A DNA stretch of 64,000 bases from Escherichia phage AnYang. Below the pieces are notes generated by a model that saw nothing but the letters and a program-made list of their open reading frames with translations, was not told where the DNA came from and searched no databases. The translations under genes were made by a program, and so were the position numbers. Below are positions 61,401 to 63,261 of this stretch, one piece after another. How positions within the stretch are numbered: the first letter of the stretch is position 1; each line of letters starts with the position of its first letter. The stretch lies in the sequence record MK234886; one strand, given 5' to 3'.

Positions 61401-62439
61401 TAACTTGGCTCCTACCCCGACCGGCGTGAAGCGTTATGAAGCTGATTCCGAAATAGCTATTAACAACCAAACCGGTATTCGTATCAGAAGTAACTACGAT
61501 AAAGCGGGTTCTAATGCTTTAATGATGCGAAATGATGGTGGAAGTTTTTATATTCTTATAACTGATAAAAACGCAACCGATGGCGCTGCAACAGTTAACG
61601 GTGATTGGAACTCATTGCGTCCTTTTACAATAAGCATGACTACCGGTGAAGTATCAATGAATAATGGTACAATTCATCGTGGTTCCTCTTTGTTCTACAA
61701 TGGCATAAACGTCAAAGATAACGGTTCGATTAACTTTGATAAATCAGGCGCAAACCCGAGAAACATGCGTATATTCCATGCTGGTGATGGCACACGCGGA
61801 AACCGTATTGAAATTGCTGATGACTCAAGCTATATTGTTTATTTCGAAAAAACTCCGGCCGGAGCAAACCGTTCTTCATATAATAGCTGCGAAGTTAACG
61901 GTATAACTACCCTTAGCGTCGGAACTAAGATTAACACCCCACAAATTGGAGCATTTGGTGTCAATACAACAAATGGATGGGGTGGTAACTCCATTGCAAT
62001 TGGTGATAGCGATACAGGTTTCAGACAAGTTGGTGATGGTCTTTTAGAAGCTTGGGCTAACAACGTTAAAGTTGTACGTTTTACTTCTAGTGAAGTATAC
62101 TCCGAGAAAAACGTCAATGCTCCTAACGTTTATATTCGTTCTGATATCAGATTGAAATCAAACTTCAAGCCTATTGAAAATGCTCTTGAAAAGGTTGAAC
62201 AGCTCGACGGTTTAATCTATGATAAAGCAGAGTATATTGGCGGTGAAGCGGTTCAAACTGAAGCAGGTGTTATTGCTCAGAAACTTAAAGAAGTATTACC
62301 TGAAGCAGTGCATGAATCTTTAGATTCGCAGGAAAATATGGTTCTGACAGTTTCGACTCAGGCACAAGTTGCTCTGTTAATTGAAGCAGTTAAAACCCTG
62401 TCGGCTAAAGTTAGAGAACTTGAAGCTAAATTAAATTAA
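58468..62439 (+). CDS. 37: Long tail fibre distal subunit gp37 with a C-terminal intramolecular-chaperone-like domain
   Basis: 1323 aa; conserved gp37 N-terminus ([41 protein letters not shown]); C-terminal about 100 aa carry SDIRLK and a coiled-coil tail typical of the auto-cleaving chaperone domain of tail spikes/fibres. Confidence 0.92.
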   Translation: [1323 protein letters not shown]

Positions 62440-62443
62440 GAAA

Positions 62444-62465
62444 AGGGCCTTCGGCCCTCTAAGGA
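62444..62465 (+). terminator. Stem-loop (partial terminator or attenuator) between genes 37 and 38
   Basis: GGGCC-ttc-GGCCC hairpin followed by a T-run, just before the gp38 start. Confidence 0.45.
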
Positions 62466-62472
62466 TTTTTTA

Positions 62473-63261
62473 ATGGCAATTGTAGGAATACCTGGTTGGA
62501 TTGGTGAATCTGCAGTGAATGAAACTGGACAACGCTGGATGGATGCTGCTATGCGTGATGTGCGAGTTGCAGTACCGGGTTGGATGGGTTCGATGGCTAA
62601 CCAATCAAAAGAAATTTACTTATCTATAGGGGCTAATAACTCTTATGACAGAAATACGCTAATTAATTGGATGAGAGCCCAAGGCGGTGCGCCTGTGGTT
62701 ATTACTATAACCGGGAATATAGTATCAAATAGCCGTGGAAACCCGTGTCTGGAATTCCCTAGCAACTTACCTAATGCTTATATACAACTTAATATTAATA
62801 GTGGTGTAACCGTTTATGGTCGAGGAGGTAATGGTTCTACTAATGGTACTGCAGGCCAAGCAGGCGGTACAGCAATCCATAACGCCGCTGGAACCAAATT
62901 GCGTATTCGAAACAATGGTGCTATCGCTGGCGGTGGCGGCGGTGGCGGTGCTGTATCGTTACAGAACAGCTATCCGACTAACGGTACCTGTGGCGGCGGT
63001 GGTGGTAGACCATTCGGCGTCGGTGGGAAAATAGGGTCTGATGCCATATTGTCCGGTGCAAACGCATCTCTAACTGCCGCTGGCTCAGGTGGTACCACGG
63101 TCCAATACGGTGCAGGTAACGGCGGTAATGTTGGTGCTGGCGGTGGACGAGGATGGGGCAAAAACGTTTATACCTCTGCAGGCGGTTCAGCTGGTGCAGC
63201 CGTTACAGGCAATGCTCCTTCTTGGCAGAACGTAGGAACCATCTACGGAAGCCGTGTGTAA
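62473..63261 (+). CDS. 38: gp38 receptor-binding adhesin of the T2 type, with glycine-rich motifs
   Basis: 262 aa; N-terminus MAIVGIPGWIGESAVNETGQRWM and C-terminus GTIYGSRV as in T2-type gp38; poly-Gly motifs (GGGGGGGA, CGGGGGRPFG) separating variable segments. Confidence 0.88.
   Translation: MAIVGIPGWIGESAVNETGQRWMDAAMRDVRVAVPGWMGSMANQSKEIYLSIGANNSYDRNTLINWMRAQGGAPVVITITGNIVSNSRGNPCLEFPSNLPNAYIQLNINSGVTVYGRGGNGSTNGTAGQAGGTAIHNAAGTKLRIRNNGAIAGGGGGGGAVSLQNSYPTNGTCGGGGGRPFGVGGKIGSDAILSGANASLTAAGSGGTTVQYGAGNGGNVGAGGGRGWGKNVYTSAGGSAGAAVTGNAPSWQNVGTIYGSRV

Follow-up and report, generated by a model that had tools for sequence, protein, structure and literature searches.

Among the closest described counterparts of genes 37 and 38 of Escherichia phage AnYang (species Dhakavirus anyang; sequence record MK234886, of which a stretch of 64,000 nucleotides, here called the window, was analysed) are the long tail fibre tips of phages S16 and T2. 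In S16, gp37 removes 113 C-terminal residues from itself by a cut at S^SDRRIKK, and this uncovers the surface on which gp38 docks (PMC7917993); the crystal structure has a (gp37)3-gp38 stoichiometry, and three conserved tryptophans of gp38 act as prongs that enter pockets of gp37 (PMC6851490). Cleavage in the fPS phages is predicted at DVYIR^SDGRLKI (PMC7917993), and in T2 and T6 gp37 undergoes proteolytic cleavage and bears gp38 as its cap (PMC3157838). Glycine-rich motifs together with hypervariable segments form the gp38 architecture described by Trojet et al. (PMC3157838); the description of the domain as a polyglycine-II sandwich whose distal loops vary is attributed to Dunne et al. in PMC6851490.

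The AnYang region at positions 62137–63261 very probably encodes the same kind of device, namely the module for the distal tip of a long tail fibre of the T2 type, composed of a self-cleaving gp37, a docked gp38 adhesin and an operon with a conserved hairpin. Domain identities, sequence motifs, the fold of gp38, its pattern of variability, the conservation of the hairpin and the mosaic boundaries of the locus were all observed directly. Cleavage, docking, the receptor and the function of the hairpin would follow those of the homologs.

The region, which lies on the + strand as do all features below unless stated otherwise, covers the last 100 codons of gene 37, a 33-nucleotide spacer and the whole of gene 38. 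A preliminary description of this DNA had placed the module at these coordinates; its end, 63261, indeed coincides with the final nucleotide of the stop codon of gene 38, whereas its start falls on an arginine codon, one codon ahead of the serine codon (62140–62142) at which the chaperone domain begins. Gene 37 (58468–62439) encodes the 1323-residue distal subunit of the long tail fibre, with Pfam matches to Peptidase_S74 and Gp34_trimer, and gene 38 (62473–63261) encodes a T2/S16-type long tail fibre adhesin of 262 residues, with Pfam matches to GP38 and Gp38_N. By exact-sequence look-up the two products are the phage AnYang proteins QAU03692.1 / YP_010100377.1 and QAU03693.1 / YP_010100378.1, annotated respectively as 'long tail fiber protein distal subunit' and as 'long tail fiber adhesin / tail fiber protein; host specificity'.

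The C-terminal chaperone domain of gp37

The gp37 tail carries a Peptidase_S74 domain (PF13884, 'chaperone of endosialidase'). The match spans residues 1225–1282, covers the entire model (1–58 of 58; expectation value (E) 1.1e-15; 58 bits against a cut-off of 22) and begins exactly at Ser1225. The motif SDIRLK occupies residues 1225–1230, and Ser1225 together with Lys1230 constitutes a Ser-x4-Lys motif. The Arg1224|Ser1225 junction (62139|62140) leaves 99 residues at the gp37 C terminus. This intramolecular chaperone domain, residues 1225–1323, is encoded at 62140–62436 and is delimited by the Pfam match, by profile search and by the SDIRLK motif.

Conservation is concentrated on the junction. 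The stretch containing SDIRLK is identical in nine of ten close relatives including T2, and the tenth, IME08, carries one K-to-R change after SDIRLK. Directly upstream, NAPNVYIR (residues 1217–1224; 62116–62139) is identical in all ten, T2 again included; this stretch is predicted to form the final strand of mature gp37 and is the candidate docking surface for gp38, a role suggested by S16 and the fPS phages (PMC7917993). The motif SD.R.K recurs in the gp37 tails of 20 of 21 relatives, and xVYxR|SDxRxK is kept in 10 of 11 more distant phages from six further genera, whose chaperone domains measure 93–117 residues; the exception is NP4, the annotated gene of which is disturbed by a duplication.

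Profile searches with the gp37 tail recovered gp37 of S16 (6f45_A, 1.3e-16), a tail fibre (8jov, 2.9e-9), human MYRF (7dc3, 1.2e-7) and the neck appendage of GA-1 (3gud, 0.023), and 37 PHROG profiles of tail fibres match the tail at their C-terminal ends. In the S16 alignment SDIRLK of AnYang falls opposite SDRRIK. The chain ends in a segment with the hydrophobic a/d spacing of a coiled-coil type helix (V1301–L1322; 62368–62433), in which V1301, L1304, V1308, L1311, V1315, L1318 and L1322 follow one another at intervals of 3-4-3-4-3-4, a pattern read from sequence only; in the profile alignments this segment falls opposite the final helix of S16 gp37 and that of MYRF. The preliminary description had proposed that gp37 ends in about 100 residues with an SDIRLK motif and a coiled-coil tail, and that this tail is of the intramolecular chaperone type. 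Both proposals stand, the tail being 99 residues long with SDIRLK at 1225–1230 and a clean heptad pattern, and the chaperone type being borne out by the Pfam S74 match, the Ser-x4-Lys motif, the heptad helix and the profile matches to solved chaperone-bearing proteins.

The assignment of the gp37 tail as an S74-type intramolecular chaperone domain with a Ser/Lys motif is thus supported by its sequence, and by homology gp37 should be cut between R1224 and S1225 with release of the terminal 99 residues. In the mechanism that we propose, gp37 would be made as a precursor of 1323 residues, the last 99 of which would be the Peptidase_S74 chaperone. The chaperone would trimerise through its C-terminal heptad helix and template the folding of the trimeric beta-helical shaft, and would then cut itself between Arg1224 and Ser1225, with Ser1225 and Lys1230 as the catalytic pair, exposing the conserved NVYIR end of the fibre. 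The primary source for gp37 cleavage is reportedly the work of Drexler, Riede and Henning from 1986.

Two points weigh against this account. A search of a literature library for phage AnYang found no experimental work, and an AlphaFold2 monomer model of the gp37 tail, computed from an eight-sequence alignment (the homolog search for the tail gave 8 proteins), reached a predicted local distance difference test (pLDDT) score of 44.5, with a helix at the residues equivalent to the terminal helix. Because this model is uninformative, the chaperone fold is taken from sequence. The poor model leaves some room for a reading in which the chaperone is retained or inactive, such that gp37 would stay full length and gp38 would bind elsewhere or act as a T4-like assembly factor. 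Yet the serine, the lysine and the whole junction are identical to those of T2, for which both cleavage of gp37 and its capping by gp38 are reported, and AnYang gp38 belongs to the adhesin family, carries the docking tryptophans and matches no tail-fibre-assembly family. We consider a retained chaperone very improbable and return to self-cleavage as the preferred reading.

The gp38 adhesin and its candidate receptor

Two Pfam families account for gp38, GP38 (PF05268; 8e-80; residues 47–262) and Gp38_N (PF21721; 3.8e-16; residues 1–42), and a Pfam scan at E<=0.01 returned only these two and no T4-type tail-fibre-assembly family. The protein matches PHROG 2056 at 3e-98, and the PHROG families that it matches carry the labels adhesin, host specificity, tail fibre or unknown function, with no tail-fibre-assembly family among them; an NCBIfam scan gave no match for gp37 or gp38. 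Searched by sequence against the Protein Data Bank (PDB), gp38 recovered the gp38 proteins of S16 (6f45_D, 2.3e-45) and PP01 (9v85, 1.1e-42). A confident AlphaFold2 model computed from 31 homologs reached a pLDDT of 89.5, with the lowest confidence at residues 166–168, and Foldseek placed the model beside 6f45_D (template modelling (TM) scores 0.82/0.87) and the receptor-binding domain of PP01 (9v85; TM 0.78/0.92), so that the predicted fold corresponds to the polyglycine-II sandwich domains of S16 and PP01. These results support the classification of gp38 as an adhesin of the T2/S16 type and not as a chaperone of the T4 type, in agreement with the preliminary description, which had called it T2-type; only adhesin families of Pfam match, and S16 gp38 is close both by sequence and by fold.

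The protein divides into an attachment domain and a receptor-binding domain. The N-terminal attachment domain (residues 1–45; 62473–62607) comprises the Gp38_N match at residues 1–42 and the tryptophans W9, W22 and W37, which align to the three S16 tryptophans; W9 and W22 are nearly invariant among the 31 homologs. The glycine-rich receptor-binding domain (residues 116–262; 62818–63258) was delimited by its entropy and glycine profile and by the fold match. Glycine makes up 59 residues of gp38 (22.5%) and 32% of residues 116–262, including runs of seven (153–159) and five (174–178).

Across 113 homologs, chosen as representatives of 90%-identity clusters, near-invariant glycine motifs occupy residues 116–121, 152–159, 173–185, 214–225 and 237–246, whereas entropy and indels are concentrated in four intervening segments. 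Segment 1 (residues 122–130, STNGTAGQA; 62836–62862) combines high entropy with indels and differs from T2 at four positions; segment 2 (160–172, AVSLQNSYPTNGT; 62950–62988) has the highest entropy, three differences from T2 and the residues of lowest model confidence; segment 3 (186–213; 63028–63111) is again of high entropy, has five differences from T2 and holds the largest indel mass, after residue 209; and segment 4 (226–236, RGWGKNVYTSA; 63148–63180), likewise of high entropy, differs from T2 only once. The preliminary description had expected glycine motifs separating variable segments and had proposed an alignment of gp38 to assign the latter; the profile shows the expected alternation and fixes four segments. 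It had also held that the variable segments determine the receptor, which is published for the family (PMC3157838, PMC12032242, bioRxiv 10.64898/2026.04.02.716166). A pattern search built on the 31-sequence gp38 alignment matched 600 stretches, none of which was confirmed, and its single-protein version yielded only 4 loci; diversity was sampled from the phage collection instead.

A proline-rich antisense open reading frame of 63 residues (62970–63161, - strand) was rejected as a gene, being the reverse complement of the gp38 glycine codons. The G+C content around it is 55.6%, compared with 40% for the whole window.

According to the proposed mechanism, a single gp38 would dock on the trimeric end of gp37 through its N-terminal domain, with W9, W22 and W37 as prongs. 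Its C-terminal half would form a polyglycine-II sandwich built from the conserved glycine motifs, and the four variable segments would constitute distal loops that bind an outer-membrane protein.

As to which protein this may be, the closest gp38 sequences are those of IME341 (97.3% identity), fDHCT2 (96.6%), VR20 (93.5%) and T2 (88.5%). The comparison with T2 shows 30 substitutions and no indels, with 13 of the 30 substitutions inside the four variable segments, so that all four segments can be read as alleles of the T2 family; gp38 of ime09, which is 63% identical, has other loop alleles, with indels. T2 uses FadL and OmpF as receptors, and D190G in T2 gp38 is an adsorption-escape mutation (PMC12529663). 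AnYang gp38 keeps D190, in segment 3, as in T2. FadL has also been hypothesised, in 2025, as the receptor of two Dhakavirus isolates (PMC12753057), whose gp38 may differ from that of AnYang. Given four loop alleles of the T2 family, FadL, perhaps with OmpF, would be the most likely receptor of AnYang.

Other evidence makes this assignment softer. The 13 loop substitutions relative to T2 include position 161 of segment 2, which is valine in AnYang, alanine in T2 and threonine in SV76. SV76 differs from T2 only by A161T and G207D and is nevertheless reported with different receptors (PMC3157838), and other Dhakavirus gp38 alleles recognise OmpA or LamB/OmpC (PMC10987938). A single change, Q206L, suffices to switch RB51/RB68 between OmpF and OmpW (bioRxiv 10.64898/2026.04.02.716166). 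Taken together, we give FadL, perhaps with OmpF, roughly even odds of being the AnYang receptor.

The intercistronic hairpin and the mosaic boundaries

A stem-loop had been proposed between the two genes, and one exists. The hairpin AGGGCC-UUC-GGCCCU (62444–62458), identified by folding and by its conserved position in relatives, starts 4 nucleotides past the gene 37 stop codon (TAA) and ends 2 nucleotides before the gene 38 Shine-Dalgarno sequence AAGGA (62461–62465), which itself lies 7 nucleotides 5' of the ATG and is conserved in the alignment. Its best fold has a 6-bp stem and a UUC triloop with a free energy of -10.2 kcal/mol. Compared with shuffled sequences, the 71-nucleotide context of the hairpin has no extra stability (z -0.38).

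A hairpin occurs at the same place in 21 of 21 relatives, which represent Tequatro-, Mosig-, Dhaka-, Gapriver-, Karam-, Winkler-, Gelderland- and, with a weaker case, Pseudotevenvirus. Among seven distinct alleles, a small number in an alignment that was centred on the loop by hand, 100% of the cells pair and four of six base pairs covary, a result matched by no shuffle and by no slid register. Such conservation of position and covariation of the stem argue that the hairpin is more than a chance structure. The loops of the relatives read UUCG, CUCG and UACG on the + strand, all of the unusually stable YNCG class, which argues for a function in the sense mRNA. Rfam, scanned over 61500–64000, has no family for the hairpin, and a search of the same literature library on UUCG hairpins of T4 intercistronic regions found nothing. 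The same Rfam scan produced a sub-threshold riboswitch match at 63640–63699 (E 0.56), which we took as chance.

The hairpin lies within a single predicted late transcript. The sequence TATAAATA corresponds to a T4-type late promoter, is enriched in the window (19 occurrences against 7.2 expected) and, in a pattern search of the + strand, occurs nearby only at 52704, 57779 and 63273, that is, 5' of genes 34, 36 and t. These positions imply a division of the locus into the transcription units 34-35, 36-37-38 and t. The third site (63273–63280) ends the 36-37-38 late unit, and since the pattern search found no + strand match between 57779 and 63273, genes 36, 37 and 38 would be carried on one late transcript. 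No other intercistronic structure is present in that transcript, and the position of the hairpin coincides with the fall in required stoichiometry from 3 to 1. We therefore regard a role of the hairpin in setting the gp37:gp38 ratio as a reasonable proposal that fits the 3:1 stoichiometry; acting on the sense mRNA of a single late operon, it would most likely lower, or insulate, the expression of gp38 relative to gp37.

Two observations count against this dosage role. The window copy is weaker than its counterparts and off-register, at -10.2 kcal/mol compared with -12.2 for IME341 and -13.4 for T2; a C(UUCG)G tetraloop is formed by the relatives and not by the window copy, in which the bulged tetraloop alternative reaches only -4.8 kcal/mol. 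In addition, a terminator scan did not call the hairpin on the + strand, where the run of T begins 7 nucleotides past the stem, and the Shine-Dalgarno sequence is not sequestered by the hairpin.

Canonical C(UUCG)G hairpins occur elsewhere in the window, at 9240–9261 (+), 30455–30472 (-), 34125–34146 (-), 42438–42451 (-) and 48119–48138 (-). These five have stems of 5-9 bp, lie mostly outside long open reading frames and in several cases are followed by T-runs. CTTCGG is twofold enriched in the window, with 39 occurrences compared with 19.9 expected, and none of 100 shuffles reaches 39.

The recurrence of such hairpins at several other, mostly intergenic, sites, the enrichment of CTTCGG, and the tolerance of the window hairpin for a lost tetraloop register would all suit a generic mRNA element, such as a barrier to 3'-exonucleases or a structural insulator common between T-even cistrons, with no specific part in the gp37:gp38 ratio. 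Two features speak for something more specific, namely that the hairpin is the sole intercistronic structure of 36-37-38, exactly at the drop from three copies to one, and that its position relative to the stop codon and the Shine-Dalgarno sequence is kept in at least seven genera. A generic role is nonetheless a serious contender, somewhat short of an even chance.

The terminator scan bears on a second alternative, for it calls the hairpin on the minus strand only, as AGAGGGCCGAAGGCCCTTT followed by TCTTAATTTA. The structure could accordingly be an intrinsic terminator against early antisense transcripts that run into the late fibre genes from the convergent genes asiA and arn. In all relatives these two follow t immediately, on the minus strand, and in Dhakavirus asiA overlaps t by 4 nucleotides. 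Several properties of the hairpin fit such a terminator badly. The stable loops exist only on the + strand, the minus strand reading CGAA, CGUA or CGAG; several alleles have a poor U-tract on the minus strand, among them those of dhaeg (UAUUAGUUU) and VR20 (UGUUAAUU); and the site lies about 1.5 kb inside the late unit and not at the t/asiA junction. We judge minus-strand termination improbable and retain a function on the sense mRNA as the preferred interpretation.

The hairpin also sits within a mosaic. By sliding identity, the ten close relatives match AnYang at about 40-75% upstream of approximately 62113 and at 80-96% from the NVYIR codons onward. Upstream of that point, values of about 70-87% are confined to dhaeg, VR20 and CJ20 and to short patches within approximately 61400–62000, and the last approximately 30 residues of mature gp37 before NVYIR find a match in none of the ten. 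The jump in identity at about 62113, from about 60-70% to 80-93% around the codons of NAPNVYIR, indicates a conserved, exchangeable unit that runs from the docking strand through the chaperone domain and the hairpin to gp38; a similar mosaic boundary was noted earlier in the fPS phages (PMC7917993).

A second and finer boundary falls in the hairpin itself. At sites that distinguish IME341 from T2, AnYang is IME341-like at 62169–62449, mostly T2-like at 62455–62547 and again IME341-like at 62577–63300. The T2-like recombination patch of about 95 bp (62455–62547) comprises the 3' arm of the hairpin, the Shine-Dalgarno sequence and gp38 codons 1–25, and thus supplies the T2-like N terminus of gp38 (IGESAVNE). 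Its left junction lies within the hairpin loop, such that the left arm is of the IME341 type (AAAAGGGCC) and the right arm of the T2 type (GGCCCTCT), and these chimeric arms explain the loss of the canonical C(UUCG)G register in the window hairpin.

In Salmonella phage vB_SenM-AKM_NP4 (OR122689.1) the corresponding locus contains, at 194–447, a perfect tandem duplication of 127 nucleotides that includes the last approximately 100 nucleotides of gene 37, the hairpin and the Shine-Dalgarno sequence. Hairpin and ribosome-binding site consequently stand twice before gene 38, as either a real recombination footprint or an assembly artefact.

In a more ambitious idea, the YNCG hairpin between genes 37 and 38 would be a conserved, dedicated cis-acting RNA that both sets the 3:1 ratio of gp37 to gp38 and offers, in its invariant loop and flanks, a preferred crossover point for the exchange of adhesin cassettes among T-even genera. 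The chimeric hairpin of the window and the NP4 duplication, which ends at the hairpin, hint at the second of these roles. We hold this combined role to be unlikely, though less so than termination on the minus strand.

The surrounding genes follow an order common to the relatives, with gene 38 directly 3' of gene 37 and 5' of the holin gene. Gene 34 (52744–56622, from the list of open reading frames), gene 35 (56631–57755; 374 residues) and gene 36 (57812–58459; 215 residues) precede gene 37, and gene t (63299–63952; 217 residues; Pfam holin, E 1.3e-65) follows gene 38. Other Dhakavirus phages share 91-95% nucleotide identity with the window (megablast, 24 kb). The window ends 48 nucleotides past t, and what follows is known from relatives: in those of Dhakavirus and Gaprivervirus, t (+) and asiA (-) are convergent and their 3' ends overlap by 4 nucleotides (locus approximately 2977–2980), which leaves no room for a terminator between the late and early units.

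Two further observations concern the fibre subunits. Residues 57–128 of the hinge protein gp35 (56631–57755, +) match Pfam ILEI (interleukin-like EMT inducer / FAM3-type; E 2.1e-8; 35 bits against a cut-off of 27). The motif N(Q/S)H/N-N..(K/R)AP.F.......Y.P.IKQRY..G.FS.GTL has three copies, one close to the C-terminal end of gp34, one close to the N-terminal end of gp37 and one in the middle of gp37, and residues 962–1055 of gp37 match Pfam Gp34_trimer (E 6.6e-11); the subunits of the fibre thus have repeated domains in common.

Comparison with known systems

The receptor-binding tip is known biology, in that the cleavage sites of homologs and the architecture of gp38 are published and the AnYang proteins are present in RefSeq. 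What is mildly new is the covariation of the 37/38 hairpin across genera and the recombination junction within it. The tip matters because in most T-even phages host range depends mainly on gp38, so that a correct reading aids the prediction of host range and its re-engineering for phage therapy. The usable output is a testable prediction of the AnYang receptor as FadL, perhaps with OmpF, and a smaller lead is the conserved intercistronic hairpin, which may regulate the dosage of the adhesin and may also be the site of a recombination junction.

Of the described systems, the gp37-gp38 tip of S16 (PDB 6F45; Dunne et al. 2018) has the same architecture. Both phages have a gp37 chaperone domain that starts with Ser-Asp-x-Arg-x-Lys, autocleaving in S16 and presumably so in AnYang, and the single gp38 of S16, with its three tryptophan prongs, central beta-helix, polyglycine-II sandwich and variable distal loops, resembles that of AnYang. 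The two gp38 proteins are nevertheless only about 43% identical and carry different loop alleles, the chaperone domain has 99 residues in AnYang and 113 in S16, and the residues before the cut are NVYIR in AnYang and DLNVS in S16. The hosts differ as well, AnYang infecting E. coli whereas S16 infects Salmonella, where it binds OmpC.

T2 (Tequatrovirus) has the identical cleavage junction, the 99-residue chaperone domain and the same arrangement of hairpin and Shine-Dalgarno sequence. Its gp38 is 88.5% identical and free of indels, with the same allele family in all four variable segments. AnYang departs from T2 at 30 gp38 residues (13 of them in loops, including V161 where T2 has A), in the gp37 shaft upstream of approximately 62113, where nucleotide identity is about 40-70%, in its Dhakavirus backbone and in the altered register of its hairpin. 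The Dhakavirus and Gaprivervirus phages IME341, fDHCT2, VR20, IME08 and dhaeg are closer still, with gp38 90-97% identical and the chaperone domain and t up to 100% identical at the nucleotide level. Unlike them, AnYang contains the T2-like patch (62455–62547) and the unmatched last approximately 30 residues of mature gp37 before NVYIR.

At a greater distance, endosialidase K1F, the GA-1 neck appendage (3GUD), MYRF (7DC3) and the family PF13884 as a whole share with AnYang gp37 a Ser/Lys motif at the start of the domain, which sits at the very C-terminal end of a trimeric fibre, and a helix at its end. The similarity is distant, with profile E values of 0.023 for GA-1 and 1.2e-7 for MYRF, and the passenger in AnYang is the shaft of a T-even fibre and not a tailspike or a transcription factor. 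Finally, T4 has the same locus, with the gene order 34-35-36-37-38-t. In contrast to AnYang, it is the gp37 tip of T4 that binds the receptor, and T4 gp38 is a non-structural assembly chaperone of unrelated sequence (PMC6851490).

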